Below, piece by piece: positions 4,660 to 62,099 of a stretch of DNA of 64,000 bases; positions within the stretch are counted from its first letter, which is position 1, and each line of letters opens with the position of its first letter. The stretch is from Lama glama (Eukaryota), in NCBI GenBank assembly GCA_028534125.1, contig CM052816.1, positions 434,001-498,000 of the forward strand, in the 5' to 3' direction. Under the pieces are notes generated by a model. It was not told the origin of the DNA. It ran no database searches and saw only the letters and a list, made by a program, of their open reading frames with translations. Both the position numbers and the translations under genes were made by a program.

Positions 4660-5345
4660 AGTGAAGGGACTGGGACATGCCACCCCAAAATATGCCACTT
4701 TGGCAGCAAGATTATTTAGCGCTAAAGGTGACCGAGAACCAGCAGAGCTCTCCGGCCTCCTCCTTTCACCTAAAGGAGGTGTACCAGAAGGGGAGAACAC
4801 TCATCACCCAGAGCCAAGCTGTAGACACTGAGATGAGTCTACCTAAACAAATCTTCTCCTATTAGTTCCCCCCAACATACTTCCTAGTTCCTTTCCCACA
4901 ATGTATTGGCCCTAGAAGCCCTAATCCCTTTTCCTTTGTCTAGTCGCTTCTCCACAATTTATCCTCTTTTGTTAAAATGGAATATAAGGGGGGAGGGTAT
5001 GGCTCAGTGGTAGAGTGCATGCTTAGAGCACACAAGGTCCTGGGTTCAATCCCCAATACCTCTGTCAAAGATAAATAAATTAAAAAACCTAACTGCCCCT
5101 CCCCCAAAATAAAAAGTCTAAAATATATCATATATTTATAAAAATATAAATATATTTATATATATAAATGGAATATAAGCCTGAGTCTAACCACTTCTTT
5201 GAGTTTTTCGCTTCTTTTCTGTCAAACCCTTGTGCCATGTACAATTTAAAAAATTGATCAAAGTATGTCTTTTCAACTGTTAATCTCTTCAGTCAGTTTA
5301 ATTTGCAAGCCTCAGTCACAGAACATAACCTGGTAGAGACAAACT
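4660..5345 (+). mobile_element. ERV-type solo LTR (MER34/39-like) hosting the SINE
   Basis: Starts TGAAGGG..ATGCCACCCCAAAATATGCCACTTTGGC. The same 5' motif recurs at ~12475, ~29353 and ~23290 (-). Confidence 0.6.
4989..5165 (+). mobile_element. tRNA-derived SINE (camelid type) with 14-bp TSD
   Basis: A box TGGCTCAGTGG, B box GGTTCAATCC, AT-rich tail; TSD AAATGGAATATAAG at 4975-4988 and 5166-5179. Confidence 0.9.
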
Positions 5346-6499: not shown

Positions 6500-7700
6500 C
6501 CAACTTCAGGCCAGGCCACATGCCGCACAACCCGCGCGACAGGAACCCCTGCCAGGCCGTGCAGCGCGCCGGACCTGCCCGCACCTTGAGATCGTCGGCC
6601 GCGTCCTGCAGCGGGCGCACGCGGTGAGCCCAGTGCTCCCCCGAGCGCTCGCAGGCCGCGCACAGCAGGCGCAGCTCGTCGCCGCAGAAAGCCACCAGCG
6701 GCTCGCGGTGCGCGGCACACACGCCCTGCGGGACCGGCGACGGCGGATGCAGGCGCCGTGCCATCTCGGCCATCTTGGCGAGCGGGCGGTTGGGCCGCAG
6801 GTTCCTCTGCGGGGACAACTCGCGGCACTCGGGACAGGCGTACGGGCCCTCGGGCTGGCCCCAGCAGCGCCGGATGCACTCGCGGCAGAAATTGTGGCCG
6901 CAGTCGGTCATCACCGGGTCCGTGAAGTAGTCGAGGCAGATGGCGCAGGTGGCCTCCTCTTGGAGGTTGGTGGACAGGTCGGGGGCGGCCATGGCACCGG
7001 TGCAACGGAGGAAGGCAGCGTTCTGCGCCGGGTCGGGCGGTGGCCGGCCGCCGCCGGGACTTTGGGGAGCGCGCGGGGACGCGAGGCGCAGGGCACCGGG
7101 GGACTCGGGGGACTTCGGGTCGCGAGGGCTCCGGGGTCTGAGGCTGTGGGCTCCGGGGATGCGGAGCGCACTGGCTCCGGACTGAGGTGGCTCGGGGAAC
7201 CTAGGGCCTACGGCTTCCGTACGCGGGCAGGAAGAGGTACCGGGGCGGAAGCAGGAAGCGCCTGGGTTTTTTCCCCCTTTGGAACAACCCGCTTTAGCTG
7301 CGGATTGGCCGCGGCCTATCACGCGGCCCGCAGGCCGGACTGAATTGGAGGCTGTTCACCGGCTGACCTTGCGTCGCCGCCGCCACCTGCGCGCGCAGGC
7401 GCGCGCTGCTGGCTCGGACCTGCGCTGGGGTCGCACTGCCCGGTGTCTCCTTCGGGGCTTGAGAAAGATGGAGCGTAGAGGGCAGGGGCCAGTGGGGTGC
7501 CCTGCACAGCCTTTGGGCTCTCAGCGCAGGGTAGAGGCCACGAGGACAAGGGAGGACGAGGCTGAGGCGGGGAGCCACAAGTCGTACCCCGTGCGCGCGC
7601 CCCACCCTCCGGCCGGAACCGTCCGAACTTACGGGGTGAGGGGCCTTGGGCCTTACTGGGGTAGGGGTACACTAACCGAAATCCTGGGGTGCTTGGCAGC
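6500..7700 (-). promoter_or_regulatory. TRIM11: TRIM11 CpG island/promoter
   Basis: Dense CpG. Tandem ETS-like GCGGAAGCAGGAAG at ~7245, CCAAT (gattgg) at ~7303, NRF1-like TGCGCGCGCAGGCGC at ~7388. Confidence 0.8.
6585..6992 (-). CDS. TRIM11: TRIM11 coding exon 1 (RING + B-box2), 408 nt
   Basis: ATG at 6992 gives [23 protein letters not shown]...C3HC4 RING and B-box...DDLK, followed by a GT donor. Recognised TRIM11 N-terminus within a CpG island. Confidence 0.97.
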
Positions 7701-13414: not shown

Positions 13415-13843
13415 CTTGTACTCCTGCACAGCCTCCTCGATAGGAACCACCCTGTGGGGCCGGTGTTCCTGGGACTCCCTGCAGATGACGCAGATGGGTC
13501 TCTGGTCGTCCTCGCAAAAGAGTTTGAGCAGCTCCTGGTGCACCTGGCACAGGTCCCTGCGCCACAGGCTGGGCTGCTGCCGCGCCATCTCAGCCACCTT
13601 GGTCAGGAGACGGTTGGGCCGCAGGTTCCTCTGGGGGGACAGCTCGCGGCACTCAGGGCAGGGGAAGGAGCCCTTCTGCTTCCTCCTCCTTTTCTGGGCT
13701 TTGGTCTTCTCCCAGGTCAGCTGGATGCACTCCCGGCAGAAGTTGTGACCACAGTTAGTCATCACAGGATCTGTGAAGTAGTCGAGGCAGATGGAGCATG
13801 TGGCCTCCTCCTGCAGTTTTCTGGCAAGTTCCATGGCATCCAT
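13415..13843 (-). CDS. TRIM17: TRIM17 first coding exon (RING + B-box2), 429 nt coding
   Basis: Acceptor ttccttccctag|[31 protein letters not shown]...[13 protein letters not shown]...[10 protein letters not shown] donor. Confidence 0.97.
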
Positions 13844-27270: not shown

Positions 27271-27996
27271 GTCACCCATTAACTTATATACACTATGAAG
27301 TTTAACAGACTATTTTCAACCTTTCAACTTCAAATCTTTAAAATAGTTTTGTGTACACTACTTTAATTGATGAAGATTTTGAATCTTAAACTCTCCTGGG
27401 TAAAAACCCACCCTTGCATACTAACATTGAGCTATCACCAAAGCACATTGCACAGTAACTGGCTTCTTACATACAGGCTTCCTTCACACAGCCGTAAGCA
27501 CCTTGAAAACGCAGGCTGAGCCAGGACAGTAGGGGATGGAGTTTATCTGCTTGGTATGGCCAGTGCCTGGAAGTGCATGGCCTTTATGAACTTAATAAAA
27601 CCTTAGAAGCTTCCAACCAGCACCAATGGAGGATCAAACAGTCCTTCCTTACACTCTTTCCCTCAAAGCCATGCTCAGGTTATCTCTACACAACTCTACC
27701 AGGAGTACGGGTTAACCACCCTGGCTGTAGAGTTCCACAGCAACTTATGCTTCTTTTAAGAGCTGGAAAACCTGTTGACAAGTGCACCCACATTGTCCAG
27801 CTATTCTAAAAACTACCTTGCAAAGCAAGATACCCTCTCTCAAGCACTATACTAGGGATTAATCAATGATTTCCTTAAGTTAAATCCTTTTAAGGGGACG
27901 GTGTTAGCACGCAACCACATAGCTCCCTGGTTAGCTTAAGACAGAAGGAGCTAACTACAATCAAGTTGTGCACAGCACCCTTGGAGAGCAGGCAGT

Positions 27997-28012
27997 GGCT
28001 CTGAAAAGAGCC
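27997..28012 (-). terminator. Histone 3' stem-loop of the H3 gene
   Basis: CCCCAAA-GGCTCTTTTCAGAGCC-ACT on the minus strand, followed by an HDE-like AAGGGTGCTGTG. Confidence 0.95.
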
Positions 28013-28046
28013 TTTGGGGTGAGCACAGAAGCTGCGTGCACAGCGC

Positions 28047-28457
28047 TTAAGCACGCTCGCCACGGATACGCCTTGCCAACTGCATGTCTTTAGGCATGAT
28101 GGTTACACGCTTGGCGTGGATGGCACACAAATTGGTGTCTTCAAAAAGACCCACCAGATAGGCCTCACACGCTTCCTGCAGCGCCATCACAGCTGAGGTC
28201 TGAAGACGCAGATCCGCTATGAAGTCGTGGGTAATCTCCCGTACCAGCCGCTGGAAGGGCAGCTTGCGGATGAGCAGCTCCGTGGACTTCTGGTAGCGGC
28301 GGATCTCGCGCAGCGTTACAGTGCCGGGCCGAAACCGGTGAGGCCTTTTCATGCCACAGGTAGCAGGCGCGCTCTTACGAGCCACCTTAGCGTCCAACTG
28401 CTTGCGTGGTGCCTTGCCGCCTGTAGACTTGCGCGCCGTCTGCTTCGTGCGAGCCAT
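28047..28457 (-). CDS. H3-4: Histone H3, divergent variant at the H3-4 (H3t/HIST3H3) syntenic position
   Basis: Intronless 136-aa H3 ORF with the H3t-type V24, plus TATA/CCAAT promoter and 3' stem-loop. 15 differences from H3.1. Confidence 0.85.
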
Positions 28458-28550
28458 GGTTCCGCCACTCCCCGAGTGTCACCGCTGTCACCTTTCCACC
28501 GCCGTCAATTTCCACCGCCGTCAATCGCTGAGGCGGCGCACTGTGCCCGC

Positions 28551-28621
28551 TTTTATAGAGGCTGCCGCCTTCCCATTGGCCAGTTGTCAGGTGGCGTGAT
28601 GGCAGGCTGAGCTCTGATTGG
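28551..28621 (-). promoter_or_regulatory. H3 promoter: TATAAAA and two CCAAT boxes
   Basis: ttttata 28551-28557; attgg at 28575 and 28617 on + strand. Confidence 0.8.
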
Positions 28622-29929
28622 TCCGTGGGGCATTCCGCTCAGCTGCCTGCCCTTTATCTTCACTTTCCTGGGCTTGGCCTCACAGTCTCGTGTCTTGGAA
28701 CTCACGGACCTGCTCGCGGTCCTCTGTGTCGGAGCCCTCTCGCTGTGGGCGTCATCATTGGTGTTGCATTGCCGTGGATGTTGTATCTCTGTGCCCAGAT
28801 CCCTTGTTTTTCCTCAGCAATCTCCTTTTCCTCCCCCATGGAGGGGGGAGGGGGAGGGGCAGAAAGTTCCAGAAGCCTGCACTCCGCATTTGGCCCGTAA
28901 GTAGTGACGTTTGAATTTTCCTCACTAATGGTTAAAGGAATTCTCTCATCCCTTGTGCCCTGGAAAGAACCTTTCCCCCCATATGACTAAGATGAGACTC
29001 GTAATGTCCCCTTGTTGACCCATGATGGACCAAGCACAGACCTTGCAAATACTCATCCTTGCCTCATGCGTGATTACCTGAACCTCTTGTCCCGACTGAT
29101 GGATCTGAACAAGTTGCTCATTTGCTCAACTTTGATTCAGTGTCTATCCTTCCCCTCGGCCCTGATCGTTGGCTCTTCCTGGGAACTGGCCAGCCTCAGG
29201 GTCAAGCCTCCCCTTGACCCACTGTCCCATTGGCCGCCCTGTTATCCCACTTCCCCACACCCAGTTCTTTCTAGTCTTTTCCACTTCCCCCTATAAGAGA
29301 GAATCCCCCTTTGCCTAACCCTGTGAGATACTTGCAGATCTTAAAGCCACAGCTGAAGGGTGGCAGAATGTGCCATCTCAAAATATGCCATTTCAGTGCA
29401 AGGGTTATTGTGAGTTAAAGGCACTTGAAAAACAGCAGATGTAAGAGCATTCTTTTTCTTCCTGAAAACAGAAGTTAAAACTCCCACATGAAAGATGCCT
29501 GCCCTATACCAGGATAAGAAACAGTCTTATCATCCAGGACAGGGAATTAAGATCAAAGCGGATTCTGCACAAATTGACCTTGCTGAAATAATTCTTATCT
29601 TCCTGTAGCTCCCCCATATATTTTATTTATTTTTTCACAATTGCCTCTCTTTGTTCCACCTAACATAAAAGCATTTAGGTTTTGCCATTTCTGTGAGTCT
29701 TCATTTATTATCAAAATATGTATACATTTGTCATGCAGTTATAAATACGCAAGTTTATCAGTGCATTAAATAGCACGTTCTACTTGGGGAAGACTTGTAA
29801 GTACTGTCATTTCAAAATGGTTATGGGTATTAAGGATTTTTAGAGATCTCTGTCATGGCTGTACTGTGATATGATTCCATGTCTTATCTATTTACTAAAC
29901 TAATTATGCTTCTCTTTAAACTTAAAAAA

Positions 29930-34100: not shown

Positions 34101-35187
34101 AGGGTTTCCAGGTATTAAATACTTTCAAATGCTTTGAAGTATATACCATTTGCCCCCCCAAAAAACCCCAAAACTTTGAAAAATCAAAAAACTAAATCTC
34201 TTTTTCTACATTCTCCAATAATTTAGAATAAAGACCTCCTTGTCAGTCAGGTAATCACCGTCATACCTCATGCTGGGCCTCTGGGAGCTACTTGTTTTAT
34301 TAAGAAATCATGAATTGATTATTTTTTTTTACTAAATATTTACTATTTACTCATGCATCAGGCGGCATTCCATCTTGGCAGGTAGAAACTCCAAGGGGCT
34401 GTAAGAAATGGAAGTCTTTTAAAAGCAGAAGGAAGTGGGACAAGGAAATTATTCTAGCAAAGAGCTGATCATTTCGAGCAAGGTCACCTTCCTTTGGAGG
34501 AAGCGGGTGGTCTATCAGGCAGATGACCTCACTAGCGCTGACTGGGTAATTCTACATAGATTGTTCAAAGGTCACATTTTTGGGAGAGGCTGAAACTGCA
34601 TTTAGGTTAGGGAGTGAATTTTGGTTTGCTGACATGGGATTTAACACAATTGGGGCCTGCTATTTCTTTTTTTAACAGTAATGATCATGAACTTGTTTCA
34701 TCTATCAACATCATGAGTCATATTTATAGATCTCCCCATGTTGAAAAGTCTCTGCTTTCCTGTGAGTAACCCAGCTTCATTGTGGTGACAAGAGTTCCAG
34801 GCAGAGGCGCCATCTGAAGGGCCTCTGGAAGTATCTGTGTTCTGATTGGTTGGCATCCCTAACTGTTTTATCCAATTAGAAAGCTGAACTGCTGATACTT
34901 ATTTAAATGTTCTCTTTAATCTAATCAGATGTTCAATGTACCGTCCACCTTTTCAAGGACCTGTGTTGCCTCCACTGGAAGTACATTTCTGCACTTAGGG
35001 AGGCTTAGCGGTGAGACGGGACTGATGTGCAGAAGAAGGAATGCACAGGACCCAGTGACTTTGTATCCCAAGATGCTCAGATCTCTTCCAGTTTCACCAG
35101 CTGCAAAGGGGCTCTTATTTCTAAAGCAAATTCCAAGAGCCTCTCTATTAACCCAAACTCTCCTACCTTTCTTTAAAACAGACTTCA

Positions 35188-35960
35188 TATTAGTTTTCTG
35201 TTGCTGCCGTAACAAATTACCTCCAATGTAGTGACTTAAAATCCATTTATTGCGAGCTTGTTTGGAGATTCTAGCAGGGGAGCGCAGCTACTCGTATACC
35301 CTTGACCGAGAACTATCAAGGATGGTCGTCCTCTTCCACCGAGCGAGCATCTTCCGGAGGGATGCACACAGAGTGGTGAGGGAGGAAGGGGACACCCGCC
35401 TAGCCAGCCAGATAAGACGAATCAACCCTGGCGATCAATGAGGTGACAGATGTCACAGCCAGCTCGCCCTCACATCTTTAAAACCCATTTATTATTCTGA
35501 GGTTCTGCAGGTTAGAAGTCAGGCATAGCTGGATCCTCTGTTGAGTCTCACCAGCTCAATTCAAGGTGTCTGCATGTTTCCCTTTGGGGGATAATTGCGC
35601 CCTCAGCCTCACTCAGAATGTTGGCAGTTCATTGTGAGTGTAGGGTGGGGTTTTTCCTCCCAGCACCCCGCTGGGGTGTCTTTTCCCCTAAAACCTGCCC
35701 GCACTCCTCCTCATGCTCTTCAGGTGATCCCTTCCACCAAGGGCAGGCCACGTCCTCTCCAACTTCCAATCTTTCTGACTTCCTTCCTATATCTTTCTTT
35801 ACTCCAGCTGGAGAAAGTTCTCTGCCTTTAAGGGCTCTTGCAATTAAACTGAAAAGCCCAGAATAATCTTTTATCTTAAGGTCTATAACTTTAATGACAG
35901 CTGCAAAGTCCCATTGGCTATGTGACAGAACTTACTGACAGGTTCTGGGGACTAGGAGGT
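35188..35960 (-). mobile_element. MLT1 LTR hosting the 7SK retrocopy
   Basis: TATTAGTTTTCTGTTGCTGCCGTAACAAATTACC..GACTTAAAA continues after the insert as CCATTTATTATTCTGAGGTTCTGCAGG. Confidence 0.7.
35252..35477 (-). pseudogene. RN7SK: 7SK snRNA retro-pseudogene, 3'-truncated
   Basis: Reverse complement reads GATGTGAGGGCGAGCTGGCTGTGACATCTGTCACC...GGTCAAGGGTATACGAGTAGCTGCGCTCCCCTGCTAGAA.CTCCAAACAAGCTC (7SK 5' ~240 nt). Flanked by 16-bp TSD TTAAAA(T/C)CCATTTATT. Confidence 0.93.
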
Positions 35961-48700: not shown

Positions 48701-50526
48701 CATGAGGACTTCCTTCTTTAAGCATGAGTTTGACGAGCTTTCTCTTGCAGAGCAGGCAGCTCTGAATATTTTCTCATGTTTTTGAACTTGATAAGCCCGA
48801 CAGATGATCAAACTTTAAACTAGAGCTGCCCAATAGAACTTTCTGTAATAATGGAGATGTTCTCTATCTGTTCTGTCCAACGTGGTGGCCATTGGCCACG
48901 AGTGTCTTGAGTGACTGAGAAACTGCATCTTTGTATTTAACTTCAATTAATTGCAAGTTAAATAGGTCCTGCAGCGTATAAGCTCATTAGAGATGACAAA
49001 TGAAGGACTGCCCCTTGCAGCACCTCCCACCTCGCCTCAGCTTGTAACACCCCCGTTGAAGAATTAAGTCTGGAGCTCCGTGGTGATCCTTGGAACACCC
49101 AAGCCTCCTGCTCCTGAAAAACCTTTTTTCTTGAATACCACTTAAGGGGTTGAAGATACGCAACGAATAGCAACACTTCAGTCAAATCTAAGCTAGAATT
49201 AATGGGTCCCGCTTGGCAATGTGGGTCTCCTACCTACACTGCAGGGGAGTCAGGTGTTGCCGCCTACACTGATAGAGCAGCTCCTATCAATTTTTGGTGC
49301 GAACAGTCTCATAGTGCTAGGATATTTTCTGAAGACTAGCAAATCATGATTAGCTCCAGATAGTGTCCAAGAGCCCTGGTTTGAGCACACCTAATTTTAG
49401 TCAGATAAATGTTTATTATATATGTATAATAATCCTGAATCATCTTACCAGCCTGTGTTTACGGTTATAATAAAACAAATGAATGAATCCAGTAAGGATA
49501 ATGAAGGCAAACATAACCAAAATTTACTGTGCACTTATATTGTACTGTGGATTTTTTAAAAAAGGGATTATCATGAACTAACTCATTTAATCCCTTCATT
49601 CCATGAAGTAGGTACTATTAACATCCTCAGTTGAGTTTGCAGAAGAATCTCTGGGCCACTCCAACCCCCACTCATAATAGAAGGTGGAATTCATGAACAG
49701 TCATCTTCTGAAATATCCACATATGTATTACTTAATCTGGTCCTAATAGTGGTCATTTTAAATTTACTAAATTCACAAAAGTAGTTTTCCTTGTCAAACT
49801 CAATGCACAAATTATCCTAATTTTAGCTATCAATTTAAGGGGATCTGATTAATGTTTGACCAACCCAAACTTAACCATTTAAATTGTTTTACATAATTAT
49901 TCTATTTACAAGGAAATTTCCTCGATGTTTACACTTACTTTAAAAATATTAATACTTTCGTACTTTTCAAATCGGGAAAATGCCTCTAGCAAAACAAACC
50001 CTTCCCAAGACCTGAGAATTTCCAATCCAATAAATTAGACAATTCCGGTGGATCGCAGGCGCTCTAAGAACGTTTCAACTTCAACTCATGCATTCATACA
50101 TTTTAAAATGGTAGCCATGTTTACGTATCAGAACCTCAAATGGCAAATTCTCCCTCAAGATTACATACTTGTAATACCAGATGAATCTACCAGACTTCCT
50201 GGGATAAAAACTGCTCGTACTTGGTTGGCATCTAAATGTCACCGAGTGACACTTTGCAAAGCCCAAACTAGTTTGCCATGGGCAATAACATACACACCTC
50301 CAATGAGCGGGACTGAAATGCCAGAAGCCTCGGGGCGAAATCCAACAAAAAGGATTGCCTGTCGGGCAACATTCCCCACAGCTAACGAGCACGCAGCCCA
50401 CGGTGTCCCTCTGCGCACCCCAATCATGTCTCGGGTTCGGCTTCCTGTGTGCCCTGCCTTGCACAGGAACGCACTCAGGAGGACGCAGGCCTCCGCCAGT
50501 ACGGCTCTTTTCTCGAGGCTGTGGGT

Positions 50527-50542
50527 GGCTCTGAAAAGAGCC
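50527..50542 (-). terminator. Histone 3' stem-loop of H2A
   Basis: CCAAA-GGCTCTTTTCAGAGCC-ACCCA on the minus strand. Confidence 0.96.
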
Positions 50543-50602
50543 TTTGGTGTCACGGGGGCCCCCCCCGGGGCGCACGGCCGTTTCCGGCCCGCCTCCGCGG
50601 CC

Positions 50603-51682
<1,080 letters not shown>

Positions 51683-51710
51683 GGCGCGCCGCAGCGCCCG
51701 GGAACCCAAA

Positions 51711-51726
51711 GGCTCTTTTCAGAGCC
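51711..51726 (+). terminator. Histone 3' stem-loop of H2B
   Basis: CCCAAA-GGCTCTTTTCAGAGCC-ACCCA. Confidence 0.96.
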
Positions 51727-53302
51727 ACCCACAAGATCGAGAAAGGGTTTCGAACACGTGAATGGTTGTTAACTGCAAATGTATCGCATCTCTGTTCTTG
51801 GTTCCTCGGTTACTGGGAAGCCGCCCACATTTACCCTTCCCCCTAGACGTGTGCGCGCATGTGTATGTGAAAAGAATGCGAGAATGTGCACCTGCTTGTT
51901 AGACCAGGTATGGGGGCGCGGAGACCTGAATAATGCGGATAGCTGAATAATGTGGGAGGTGATCAACGACCCGGTATCCACCCTCCCCTCCGCCCATGGC
52001 TATTAACGCTTCGCTAAGTAGAGTGGGAAGCTTAAGCTCAAATGCGCTTTGGTGTACGGGCAGCGCCATTTCCGAGACTTGGGTGCACGTTTCCAGGTCC
52101 TTCCTGTGTGCGAGTGGCGTTTGCCTGTCGGGGAATGAGGAGGGGAGGGAGGTGTGGGGGGGTGTCATCTACCCGGAGGGACCTCGTGCCGGTCCCCCAC
52201 CCCCGTATTTCTGATGGGTGAGCCCAAAGGTGTACGAAAGGGTGCGGCTTGGTGAAGCCCGGAGTGTTGTCGCGCAGCTCTGGCGGTGGTTTCCTGGCGT
52301 TGCATCCCTGCCTAGACCAGCCATCTTTATCCCAAAGCAATGAACATTTACAGGAAGATGTTTGTACGGCTGGATCCTGCAATAGCAGGATGTTTTAAAC
52401 CGAAAGGGAAATAGAAGCGTGGTGGAACTCAGCCCTCCGTGCGTAGGAGCCGAATGTAATAAGCCGACCCCTGCTGCAGGTAGTTCTAACCCTTGCGGGG
52501 GAGGGGGAGCAATTTAAGAGGAAAATAACCCTTTTCTCAATAAATGTGGCTTACTTCTACTTCAGCCCCATTGTTATTTTTTGTGACGCACTAGTGACGC
52601 AGGATTTCTCCTTTTTCTTGAATTCATAGCATTTATTTGGAAAGTGTCAGGGAGAGCGCTTTGTCCTGAAGAGTCTTCACTCTGGAGAGGACATTGCCTA
52701 CCTTTTTTCTTAACTTAGTTTTTCTTTTTTGTAAGAAGGAGATTGCTAATAATCGCTTCCTTGAGCCGTTTTGAGAGTTATATGTATTGAAAGTCGTGTC
52801 ATTGTCTCAGGCAAGGAATAGACGTTCAGTTAAACGACAACACTCATGTTTTTGTAAATCGTCTCCAAAGGAAGCCAGTTGCATGCCTGGGCGGGCTGGG
52901 CTGGCAGGACCGGGGAGGAAACGTTGCCGCTAAGTGTCCTCAGCCACAGCGGCCAGAACCAGCACCCGCCCCCTACTCCCGCCCCCATTCCTTTTTCTAC
53001 ATGGGATCACTCTAAAAGAATTTCTAAAACCCCATACATTTTAAAATTGACACCAAAAATATTTTTATTGTTAGTTCGAATCGTCGTAAGGATGCAGATC
53101 CCAACATAGGACGTTTTACAAAACAAAACTGATCTCATCAATCTTTTAAATATATCTATTGAAATAGCAATTCGATACCATAATCAATCCATAAATACAG
53201 GATTAAATTCTTTGTTAACACTGAGCTACTTTAGACCATTTCTTTTTCACCCTGAACTCATATTTCCATTCCACTTCTGCCTCAGAATTTCATCCTAATG
53301 CA

Positions 53303-55247: not shown

Positions 55248-55263
55248 GGCTCTGAAAAGAGCC
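55248..55263 (-). terminator. Perfect histone stem-loop of the H2B pseudogene
   Basis: CCCAAA-GGCTCTTTTCAGAGCC-ACG on the minus strand. Confidence 0.92.
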
Positions 55264-55286
55264 TTTGGGTTTGGGGCACAGCGGCC

Positions 55287-55640
55287 TCACTTGAAGCTGG
55301 TGTACTTGGTGATGATACTCGTAACTGGGGGCACGGCAAACTGCTTGCAGGGCAACAGCAGCGCAGCCATCAGTATCGCCTGGGAGGTGATGGCAGAGCA
55401 CTTGCAGTACTGGGGTGGAGGCCTTGCTGGCGCGTGAGCTGGAAAGTGCCCTTGAACGACTTGATGATACTATGACTTTGTAATAGATGCTGGTGTCTGG
55501 GTGAACTTGCTTAAACATCTTATACTCGTAGATGGATTAGCTCTCCTCGTGGCCTCTCTCACGCCTTCTGCCGTCCTAAGCCTCGGTGACAGCCTTCCTG
55601 GACTCCTCTTAGGCTGCGCCTCTGAGGTAGAAGTGGGGCC
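55287..55640 (-). pseudogene. H2BC27P: H2B pseudogene (HIST3H2BA/H2BC27P position)
   Basis: H2B-like segments (KAVTEA*, ES*SIYEYKMFKQVHPDTSI, TKYTSFK*) with stops, frameshifts and no ATG. Tail-to-tail with H2BC26. Confidence 0.88.
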
Positions 55641-59197: not shown

Positions 59198-59640
59198 TCA
59201 TGGGCTGAATGTTTGTGTTCCCCTCAAATTCATATGTTGAAAACTCTAATCCCCAATGTGACAGTATTTAGAAAGAACCCATTGTTCTTTGAAAGGAAAT
59301 TAAGGCATGAGAGTGGAGCTCCTGTGAATGGGATTAGTGTGCTTATAAAAGACAGGAAAGAGCTTTCTTCCCCTCTTCCTCCTTCTCTTCTTCTTTTCCT
59401 CCTCCTCCTCACCCTTCTCTTCTCCTCCTTCTCTTACTCCCCCTCCTCCTCATTCTTCTTTCTCTGTTCCAGGTCAAGATACAGAGAGAAGGCGGCCATC
59501 TGCAATCTAGACGAGGGCTCTCACCAGAACCTACCCATGCTGGCACCCTGATCTCGGACTCCCTAGCCTCCAGAACTATGAGAAATAAGTGTCTGTCATT
59601 TAAGCTCCCCAGTCTGTTATAGCAGTCTGAGTGGACAAGG
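59198..59640 (+). mobile_element. MaLR LTR (MLT1A-like)
   Basis: ATGGGCTGAATGTTTGTGTTCCCCTCAAATTCATATGTTGAAA...CCTCCAGAACTATGAGAAATAA. Confidence 0.8.
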
Positions 59641-59712
59641 ACAGTCCTTGGGATCAACAGTAACATTTTGTATTGGCTGATGGGACACTGTAGGGCAAGT
59701 TTGAGGGTTTCC

Positions 59713-59775
59713 AGAAAGAAGGAAGGAAGGAAGGAAGGAAGGAAGGAAGGAAGGAAAGAAAGAAAAGAAAGAAAG

Positions 59776-59826
<51 letters not shown>

Positions 59827-59960
59827 AAAGAAAGAAAGAAACAAAGAAAGAAAGAAGAAGGAAGGAAGGGAGAGGGAGGGAGAGGGAGGGAGGAAGGAAG
59901 GAAAAGAAAGAGAGAGAAAGAAATAAAAGAAAAGATAAAAGAAGAAAGGAAAGAGAGGGA
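59713..59960. repeat. (GGAA)n/(GAAA)n compound purine microsatellite
   Basis: Directly visible. Confidence 0.95.
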
Positions 59961-62099
59961 AGGAGTATGGGTTGGGGGTGAAGAGAATGGCAAAGAAAGA
60001 ACAGAAAAATAAAGAAAAACACAGACACAGGGTCTCCAGCTTAGCCACCAGGGACAGACCATGCTTGGGAATAATAGCCTGGATGGGTAATTTTAAAAGG
60101 GGTTTGGATGATTAAAAAAACAAAAACAAATACCTTTTCTCCCCCTTACTGTCATTTCTAGAGCACAGAGCCTAGATTCCATAAATACATTGAATAAATG
60201 GTTGCATGCATGAAATGAGCTCATTTTATCATCCTGGATCTTTGTGCAGCAGGGATGAAGCCATTCTTTCCTCCTGGGAATGTGCAGTAAGCTCTCTTCT
60301 CACTCAGCCAAGAAGCCAAATCCCTTTAAAATACTCACAAACAAGCATTTCATATAACTGAAACATTGCAATGGCAAACACACAGATTTTGCTTTTCTGT
60401 TTCTCACCCCCCCCCCGCCCTTCCGTCAATAGAATGTTGGTTCTCTCCACATCGGAATTGCTAAAGCAACACTTGTTACCCACACAGCCTGCTGGGAGGG
60501 AGGGAGGGATCTGCTTGGAGGCAGATACAGAAAAGACACCACAAGGGCTCACTGGAGGAGATGTTTAATTCTTTGGGGTTGAGCGCTGCAGGAAGGTGGG
60601 TAGTTGAAATTACAGGAAGTGCTGTGCAGCTTTGCGGAGAAAAGATAAACCTCAGAATGCTGCAGGATTGTGGAGAAGGGAAAGACGGCTTAGGCAGCCT
60701 TTGTCCTTCAGCACAGCTTCCAGCGGACACATTGCAGATAAAAGCCATCCTCCCGCCACCAGCGAGAGATGCCCCTAGTGGCAAGGGGCTGGGGATCCCA
60801 GTCTCCAATACCGCCCTCCGCTGCGCTGACATTAGAGGTCCTGCCCACGCGAGATAGGCAGATGACTGGGTCGCCTCCCGGGGTCGTCTTTTCCAAATGC
60901 CCGTGTTGGCCAAAGCTACTTCTGTGCCCATTTTATTTCAGCAAATTAGAAAAGAGTAGAGCTGCAATCTAATCCCAGAGCCAGGTGTGAATGAAGGACA
61001 GGAGACCACAGCTGCCTAAGTGAGACAGGACTGCGAAACGGAATCTGAGAAGCAGGGCGTACAGTGATGGACACACAGCTTGTGAAATGTGCGTTCCCAT
61101 CTCAGCGCCCACGCAGACACACAGACGCACAGAGGCAGGGCACATCGGCTCCTGAGCTGGACAGTCACTGCCGGACTGTGAGGGCGCAGAAGGCTTCAGA
61201 GGCCAGGCTGACAAAACCCCCAACAGATCAACAAGAGAAAAACAGTTTTTATTAATGTATGTGCTGCACATCACATGGGAGAAATCTCAGTGATGAGTAA
61301 CTCCCGTAAGTACTCATCAGAATAAAACTTAACTTTTACACTGTGGGTTTTTCTTCAAGTCAATACCGGATTAAAAAAAAAAAAACACCCCACAAAACCA
61401 AAAAGCAATTCCTAGGAAGATTTTGCACATACATGGAATAATAGAGTCACTTCTAAATAACTAAAAATTTCATAGCTTTTTTAAAAACCATTAAAAAAAA
61501 ATTTAACACTACCACCAGATTGCTCCTCCCCAAAACTTTTGTCTTTTCTAAAGAAATGCTAACAGATTTCCTGGTCCCAGGCCAGGAGATTAGCAGCTCT
61601 GCGTTTTATCAGGTGTCTTCACTCTGAATCAATGAATTTCCCTGCCTCCGCATTCCTCCGCGCCTGGGATTGCGCCAGGAACAGTGGATTTGAGGCCCGG
61701 GCCCCAGGAAGGACGCAGGCTGCTCATGCGGGTGGCCCACACAGAACGGGTGCCCCCGCACGCCACGCCGGACATGTGCACGCGGGGAGGCCCACGCGGC
61801 CCCAGGCGTGCTGAACGACTCCACTCCCGAAGCGGCAGGCGAGAGGGCCCGCACAGCTGGTTTGCCAGCCCCGTCCCCACCCCCCAACCCCGCGTGGGCG
61901 TTGCGCCACAAGGAGGTGCTTGTAACTCAGGTCCTGGCAGCTTACAAAAAAAAGGATTTAAAATAGACATTTCAAATAAATCTGTTTCCCTCTCGCACAC
62001 GAGTCGTTTATGGGAGGAGTGACAATCCCTGTAAGATTTCAGCGTGCGAAGACGTGGGTCGGCCGGCTGGCACACCACGGCTAGCTGGGCCGGGCTGGG

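Follow-up and report, generated by a model that had tools for sequence, protein, structure and literature searches.

The histone variant H3.4 or H3t (human H3-4, formerly HIST3H3; mouse H3f4) is encoded in eutherian mammals by an H3 gene of the HIST3 cluster, and orthologs have been defined by the location of such a gene next to TRIM17 and/or TRIM11 together with H2A and H2B genes (PMC13396413). Valine 24 is the hallmark of H3.4, and cysteine 96 is present in all eutherian orthologs (PMC13396413). In the mouse H3.4 is the main H3 of differentiating spermatogonia, where its deposition is replication-coupled, and its sequence matters for fertility. For 60 coding H3-4 orthologs a dn/ds ratio of 0.025 was reported in this study, and a ratio of 0.46 for 27 pseudogenes. 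A further testis-expressed variant, hominid H3.5 (H3-5), has asparagine in place of lysine 79, has lost lysine 37 and gained cysteine 33; its substitution at position 79 is harmless to the formation and stability of nucleosomes, and its instability is due to leucine 103 (Urahama et al. 2016, PMC4714512). The present work concerns an H3 gene in a stretch of 64,000 nucleotides of Lama glama DNA (GCA_028534125.1, contig CM052816.1, positions 434,001 to 498,000 of the forward strand), which is called the window in its whole length. The gene is intact, present in one copy and syntenic with H3.4, it has kept its promoter and processing signals, and its protein combines a conserved core with a rewritten surface. 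We favour, with moderate confidence, the reading that it is a working germline H3.4 on which constraint has weakened and which is unable to carry marks at lysine 79, tyrosine 41 or threonine 80.

The coding sequence occupies positions 28047..28457 of the minus strand and comprises 136 codons including the initiator methionine and excluding the stop codon (Pfam Histone, E 2.3e-45); the start codon stands in the context ACCATGG. A preliminary description of this DNA, made from the letters alone, had proposed a full H3 reading frame of 136 codons and had listed fifteen differences from H3.1. Neither a stop codon nor an insertion or deletion was found in the frame, and a HMMER alignment to H3.1 of the PDB (1u35_A) returned exactly the same 15 residues, A21D, T22A, A24V, G33C, V35M, K37R, Y41F and A47T in the N-terminal part and A75T, Q76H, K79I, T80A, F84L, S86T and I124M in the rest. 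The same alignment showed lysines 4, 9, 14, 18, 23, 27, 36, 56 and 122 to be retained and only one of the 15 changes to fall into residues 87-135, in agreement with the earlier statement that lysines 4, 9, 27 and 36 are untouched and helices alpha2 to alpha3 mostly spared. That human H3.4 departs from H3.1 at four sites, A24V among them, was likewise borne out by protein alignment. Canonical H3.1 is 89% identical to the window protein and has cysteine 96, alanine 98, the gene architecture and the processing signals in common with it. Unlike the canonical genes, the window gene lies outside the large histone clusters and has valine 24 plus 14 further changes.

In the order of the minus strand the H3 gene at 28 kb is followed by the first exons of TRIM17 at 13.8 kb and of a TRIM11-like gene at 7.0 kb, while on its other side an H2A gene (50.6 kb), an H2B gene (51.3 kb) and an H2B pseudogene (55.5 kb) are found. 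The order published for the dromedary, 'H3-4> TRIM17> TRIM11>', corresponds to the orientation seen in the window (PMC13396413), and the gene thus occupies the same HIST3 locus upstream of TRIM17 and TRIM11 as the eutherian H3.4 genes. It shares with them also valine 24 and cysteine 96, both present in the alignment, as well as the single exon and the stem-loop. The synteny with the HIST3 and TRIM genes and the two residues therefore show the window gene, an H3 gene of the replication-dependent type in the small HIST3 cluster, to be orthologous to H3.4 (H3t, H3-4), the testis histone of eutherians; it is the camelid (alpaca) copy. It is single-copy: the genome contains 122 H3-like matches, and the best of them after the gene itself is 89% identical. 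The preliminary description had suspected a newly arisen variant and had counted A24V among the changes of the lineage. Neither point could be upheld, since the gene is a known H3.4/H3t with TRIM17 synteny and A24V is a trait of the family rather than a camelid change. An origin from H3.3, as in H3.5, which lies at another locus, was rejected, because residues 31, 87, 89 and 90 agree with H3.1/H3.4 (alanine 31, serine 87, valine 89 and methionine 90, versus serine 31, alanine 87, isoleucine 89 and glycine 90 in H3.3). Phenylalanine 104 is unchanged here, unlike in H3.5 with its leucine 103.

Protein searches returned mostly fused or duplicated H3 predictions, so that only a Camelus cluster and an H3.1t cluster were useful. 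The former, at 90% identity, had three members of 136 amino acids each: the window protein, one protein common to Camelus species, and one of the dromedary. Both Camelus proteins are intact and 96-97% identical to the window protein, the dromedary ortholog 97%. Fourteen of the 15 changes, including K79I, are common to both, only Q76H being confined to the alpaca side, and the Camelus side has added Q19R, Y54F and Q125R. In the alpaca and the two Camelus sequences start and stop codons are in place, and neither a premature stop nor a frameshift was seen. The divergence claimed by the preliminary description is therefore real and specific to the camelid lineage, K79I is fixed in all three sequences, and the orthologs of the sister species, for which it had asked, are intact. 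Camelid proteins differ from the H3.4 consensus at 14-19 residues, and six non-camelid H3.4 proteins (by source label human; Muroidea; orangutan/armadillo; Rhinolophus; Muntiacus; tree shrew) only 0-3. Some 13 extra amino acid changes were fixed after the camelids had left the other artiodactyls and before alpaca and camels separated, and few later. Camelids and other artiodactyls have been apart for about 60 million years or more, alpaca and camels for about 17-25 million years. In NCBI the Camelus orthologs are labelled 'histone H3.1', although synteny and valine 24 make them H3.4, so that the variant is hidden from proteomic and annotation searches by name. The dromedary ortholog is contained in Supplementary Data 1 of the published survey, where it is given as 86% identical to the human protein, and alpaca H3-4 was not found by its authors in an older assembly (row 77; PMC13396413).

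These orthologs also bear on the explanation that the substitutions are an artefact, be it an error of sequencing or assembly or the result of GC-biased gene conversion near a chromosome end, which is very improbable. The locus does lie only about 0.46 Mb from the start of a contig of 120.7 Mb, and the dromedary ortholog 0.59 Mb from a chromosome end (PMC13396413). Since 14 of the 15 changes recur in Camelus genomes that were assembled independently, however, assembly error, which the preliminary description had named as a way to refute its claim, is excluded. A share of 0.94 of the sampled words is contained in four sequencing runs with the same organism label, among which the source sample itself may be included, and the adjoining H2A and H2B genes are intact. 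As to biased conversion, by-eye counts on the camelid lineage gave 14 strong-to-weak versus 5 weak-to-strong synonymous changes and about 5 versus 5 nonsynonymous ones; it was rejected because an excess of strong-to-weak changes is the opposite of its signature.

Selection on the gene was estimated from codons counted by eye between the window coding sequence and the published coding sequences of dromedary, bison and mink, with 298 nonsynonymous and 98 synonymous sites; the figures are approximate. On the camelid lineage 14 changes are nonsynonymous and 23 unambiguously synonymous, with another 11 three-way sites; this yields a dN/dS ratio (omega) of about 0.16-0.20 and rejects neutrality (P = 1.6e-06). 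On the bison lineage 2 nonsynonymous changes stand against 30 synonymous ones (omega about 0.02). Unlike the 0.025 of coding H3.4 orthologs (PMC13396413), the camelid lineage thus has a ratio of about 0.16-0.3 by eye, and the strong purifying selection typical of H3-4 orthologs, a usual but not a defining feature of the family, was not found. Neutral decay of the open reading frame was simulated with a ratio of indels to substitutions of 0.08-0.125, which is our assumption; survival of the frame across the whole camelid lineage had a probability of at most 2e-5. As neutrality over the whole lineage and neutral survival of the frame are both rejected, the gene has been under selection through most of camelid history, and purifying selection persists, although its strength is only about a tenth of that acting on other H3-4 genes.

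The later part of this history looks different. Between alpaca and dromedary 8 differences were counted in the 400 nucleotides visible, 4 of them nonsynonymous and 4 synonymous (codons 29, 66, 71 and 118). The crown omega of about 0.33 that results from these 8 changes differs from 0.025 (P = 0.0014), and selection on camelid H3-4 may have been relaxed recently. The dN/dS test suggested by the preliminary description hence came out in two parts, with neutrality rejected for the lineage and, at P = 0.11, not for the crown. Its alternative of an early pseudogene was equally answered in part, by a crown ratio compatible with 1 and broken H3-4 copies in pig, peccary and whales on the one hand and an intact reading frame on the other.

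In its full form this alternative, the main rival, states that selection on H3-4 was relaxed in camelids as in pigs and whales, the gene being unneeded or silent, and that the frame is still open only by reason of the slow evolution of camelids and the short time elapsed. We regard it as possible but rather doubtful. A number of observations speak for it and weigh against a working gene. The crown ratio of 0.33 is one; another is that both frames would survive neutrally since the split of alpaca and camels with a probability of about 0.07-0.15 in the simulation, and the lineage counts by eye used one outgroup only (bison as sister, mink as outgroup). The protein of Bactrian and wild camels has two further replacements, A1V and E59Q. 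In other mammals loss of the gene is common: H3-4 is a pseudogene in pig, peccary, sperm whale, beluga, polar bear and sea lion, 27 being listed in all, the gorilla gene is truncated and that of Felidae has a frameshift (the latter two according to the discussion), and some cetacean copies are labelled protein-coding despite radical changes (PMC13396413). Among Artiodactyla ruminant H3-4 is conserved, pig and peccary have pseudogenes and several cetacean copies are broken, so that two of the four main groups have lost the gene or are losing it. Y41F is also found in the pseudogenes of pig and peccary and T80A in that of the pig (by eye), and K79, Y41 and T80 are invariant in canonical H3. At the 3' end the sequence beyond the hairpin is atypical, which keeps the full Rfam Histone3 model at 30.4 bits, below its gathering score of 34; the H2A and H2B genes of the cluster pass with 37.7 and 38.3 bits. 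Finally, the dead H2B neighbour has a perfect stem-loop as well (at 55263), and for this reason a perfect stem-loop by itself is no sign of function.

Against decay stand, besides the rejection of neutrality over the whole lineage and the three independent intact sequences, the kind of changes that were accepted. In contrast to those of cetacean copies they are conservative and leave the fold core alone: a tally by hand gave a mean BLOSUM62 score of 0.0 for the 14 camelid changes and of about -0.8 for the 17 of the vaquita copy, 8 of which fall into residues 87-135. The copies of Suina and Cetacea occupy the same locus and show accelerated protein change, with Y41 and T80 altered too. They have, however, lost their start codons, acquired stops or frameshifts, or undergone radical changes of the fold core such as R42W, R63G and R134C, together with CpG decay (by eye), none of which is seen in the alpaca.

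The control elements argue in the same direction. TATA box, two CCAAT boxes and a perfect stem-loop, all claimed by the preliminary description, were recovered on the minus strand by reading the sequence. A TATAAAA box is located at 28551..28557, about 95 nucleotides 5' of the ATG, the proximal CCAAT box at 28575..28579 and the distal one at 28617..28621. The histone mRNA 3' stem-loop GGCTCTTTTCAGAGCC at 27997..28012 has a perfect stem of 6 base pairs and a UUUC loop and is preceded by CCAAA. A downstream region at 27952..27996 contains an element which, according to duplex energy, pairs with U7 RNA in the manner of a histone downstream element (HDE). With the best U7 match of the same genome, the duplex of the U7 5' end with the 45 nucleotides past the hairpin reached -13.4 kcal/mol, compared with -7.3 (sd 2.2) for shuffled sequences (z about -2.8). 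Six stem-loop-linked histone 3' ends gave -12.9 to -21.5 kcal/mol when four canonical H3 loci (L002, L003, L004 and L027) were scanned, and the cluster neighbours gave -12.6 (H2A), -8.7 (H2B) and -8.1 kcal/mol (H2B pseudogene). An intronless gene with a 3' stem-loop and a U7-binding downstream element is what is expected of the H3.4 family, and the window gene conforms to this. Within the presumed 5' untranslated region a perfect tandem duplication of 16 nucleotides in two copies (28494..28525, minus strand, from sequence reading) extends the presumed leader to about 70 nucleotides.

Gene and promoter are spanned by a CpG island (27990..28700) with an observed/expected CpG ratio of 0.83, versus 0.12-0.31 in the flanks. 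The ratio is 0.95 in the H3-4 coding sequence and 0.73 in its promoter, similar values being found in the intact H2A (1.05) and H2B (0.93) genes, whereas the H2B pseudogene has fallen to 0.43. By-eye counts gave about 18 CpGs in 400 nucleotides of the pig pseudogene versus 34 in 411 nucleotides here, and between alpaca and dromedary only one CpG was lost by a change of the deamination type. Retention of the island for tens of millions of years implies hypomethylation in the germline. This fits a germline-active promoter but is no proof of one. With regard to the notion of an incipient pseudogene, the fully retained island and the presence of TATA box, CCAAT boxes, Kozak context, stem-loop and U7-pairing element are points to the contrary.

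The derived positions, once valine 24 is set aside, are 21, 22, 33, 35, 37, 41, 47, 75, 76, 79, 80, 84, 86 and 124. If placement were uniform, six of these 14 within one window of 12 residues would be expected with P = 0.014, and a single one in residues 87-135 with P = 0.012. The changes concentrate in residues 21-47 and 75-86, which confirms the clustering around K36 and the loop 1/K79 surface that had been noticed before. Several recur in the H3-4 of other mammals: cow, musk deer and colobus have V35M, the horseshoe bat has I124M, and tree shrew and tenrec have S86T; Y54F, an addition of Camelus, is shared with Pecora. Loss of lysine 79 is rare among the tabulated H3-4 orthologs. In Supplementary Data 1 of PMC13396413 the string 'DFK' occurs in 74 protein cells, including 3 reference rows, 'DFI' once (dromedary) and 'DFE' once (hedgehog), while 'DFR', 'DFN' and 'DFQ' are absent from this file, 6 of the 20 residues possible after D77-F78 having been searched. 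The camelid copy departs from the H3.4 family in lacking K79, Y41, T80 and K37.

The hedgehog gene (row 97) is H3-4-like and listed as protein-coding, with about 20 changes including K79E, T80I, D81Q, K23L and R26H, which makes it a second eutherian H3.4 lacking K79, and its TRIM synteny is unconfirmed in an old assembly (PMC13396413). It shares the changed positions 22, 33, 35, 75, 79 and 80 with the camelid protein, i.e. 6 (of 14 and 20), where 2.07 are expected (P = 0.007). With human H3.5 3 positions are shared (of 14 and 6) versus 0.62 expected (P = 0.015), namely an identical G33C and the losses of K37 and of K79 (K79N). It may be asked from these overlaps whether K79, Y41 and T80 were removed, and the surroundings of K36 altered, by positive selection for a spermatogonial chromatin refractory to particular writers or readers, as would have occurred independently in hominid H3.5 and in hedgehog H3.4. 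The clustering on one surface and the fixation of 13 changes on the stem with few afterwards would suit such an adaptive rewriting, which we nevertheless judge unlikely. Every omega measured is below 1, and the survey of 60 species reported no positively selected sites (PMC13396413). The overlap tests make the agreement look more significant than it is, because they treat all 135 positions as equally free to change, and the tail positions 21, 22, 35 and 47 vary in primates as well; the hedgehog copy, moreover, is the one without confirmed TRIM synteny.

A broader idea, for which we see a comparably small chance, is that H3 variants of the male germline have shed K79 and changed residues 33-37 repeatedly and independently, selection favouring a replication-deposited spermatogonial chromatin refractory to H3K79 methylation and with a changed K36 context, the marks being confined to H3.3 of later deposition. 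The parallel sites are K79I, G33C, V35M and K37R in camelids, K79E, G33S and V35L in the hedgehog, and K79N, G33C and loss of K37 in hominid H3.5.

For a working germline H3.4 under weakened constraint, the reading we prefer, the following mechanism may be proposed. If camelids resemble the mouse, dividing spermatogonia would produce the protein, and replication-coupled assembly would place it throughout the genome; a germline role is the natural expectation by analogy. DOT1L is the methyltransferase for lysine 79. The camelid protein would form ordinary nucleosomes in which DOT1L could not methylate position 79 and in which phosphorylation would be precluded at the positions of Y41F and T80A. 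Cysteine 33, methionine 35 and arginine 37 would present an altered substrate near the intact K36, and aspartate 21 and alanine 22 would be displayed beside K23, valine 24 and K27. What is retained are the histone-fold core, the contacts to H4 and DNA, and the K4, K9, K27 and K36 sites, and what has been rewritten are tail residues 21-22, the C33/M35/R37 segment, Y41F at the DNA entry, and the alpha1/L1 surface with threonine 75, histidine 76, isoleucine 79, alanine 80, leucine 84 and threonine 86. A change of lysine 79 should be structurally tolerable, because nucleosomes with H3.3 K79N form and have the same salt stability as wild type (PMC4714512).

Concerning expression, no H3-4 row was found in the accessible parts of two camel testis data sets (PMC10718809, PMC12467276); in the former 'histone H3' gave 34 matches, the first 2 of the 34 being Gene Ontology terms (one HDAC8 row). 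Of 51 sampled words a share of 0.35 was present in each of three RNA-Seq runs that belong to one study and bear the label 'reproductive system metagenome'; they can serve as leads only. Such a share fits partial coverage or a Camelus transcript diverged by about 2%.

Among the neighbouring features of the window, the next gene downstream, in the orientation of H3-4, is TRIM17, the first exon of which (RING and B-box; 13418..13843, minus strand) is 100% identical to TRIM17 as named by NCBI in Vicugna pacos. A further first exon with RING and B-box at 6588..6992 (minus strand) was detected by domain search and is called TRIM11-like from its place in the published synteny. Comparison of the TRIM proteins of the window with a protein atlas pointed to the TRIM family in general and to no specific member. 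The intact HIST3-cluster H2A gene (50603..50995, minus strand) has its stem-loop at 50502-50547 and the intact H2B gene (51302..51682, plus strand) at 51706-51750. The second H2B (55248..55602, minus strand) is a pseudogene with stop codons and an alignment gap of 2 residues, which aligns only at H2B residues 15-60, with 56% identity; its perfect histone stem-loop persists with a CCCAAA leader, which illustrates that a hairpin can outlive its gene. At 35177-35477 (minus strand) the full 7SK RNA model matched with 186.6 bits; internal deletions and a degraded 3' half make this probably a 7SK-derived pseudogene. A tRNA-model match at 4993-5064 (plus strand; 31.9 bits, gathering score 29) has several broken pairs and looks like the head of a tRNA-derived short interspersed element rather than a tRNA gene. 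Long open reading frames on both strands at 59409-60062, with repetitive FLSF.. and KERK.. strings, were rejected as a gene and represent a purine/pyrimidine-rich simple-repeat tract.

The family to which the gene belongs is known, the dromedary protein has been tabulated (Komarov 2026, PMC13396413), and Camelus proteins are available in NCBI. We did not find discussed in the literature the alpaca ortholog, the loss of K79, Y41 and T80, or the parallels with H3.5 and the hedgehog; 'K79' is absent from the main text of PMC13396413, this statement covering neither its largest supplementary PDF nor one spreadsheet, which may bear on K79.

Should the gene be decaying instead, camelids would join pigs, whales, cats and the gorilla in doing without H3.4, and the locus would show for how long an unneeded histone reading frame can look intact. 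If, on the other hand, expression of camelid H3.4 follows that of the mouse ortholog, most nucleosomes in the spermatogonia of alpaca and camels would be without K79 methylation, phosphorylation of Y41 and T80, and marks at K37, and if K79 has indeed been shed repeatedly in male-germline variants, the bulk of camelid spermatogonial nucleosomes would be affected. Camelids would then offer a natural knock-in which separates the nucleosomal role of H3.4 from the K79, Y41, T80 and K37 marks in sperm development.

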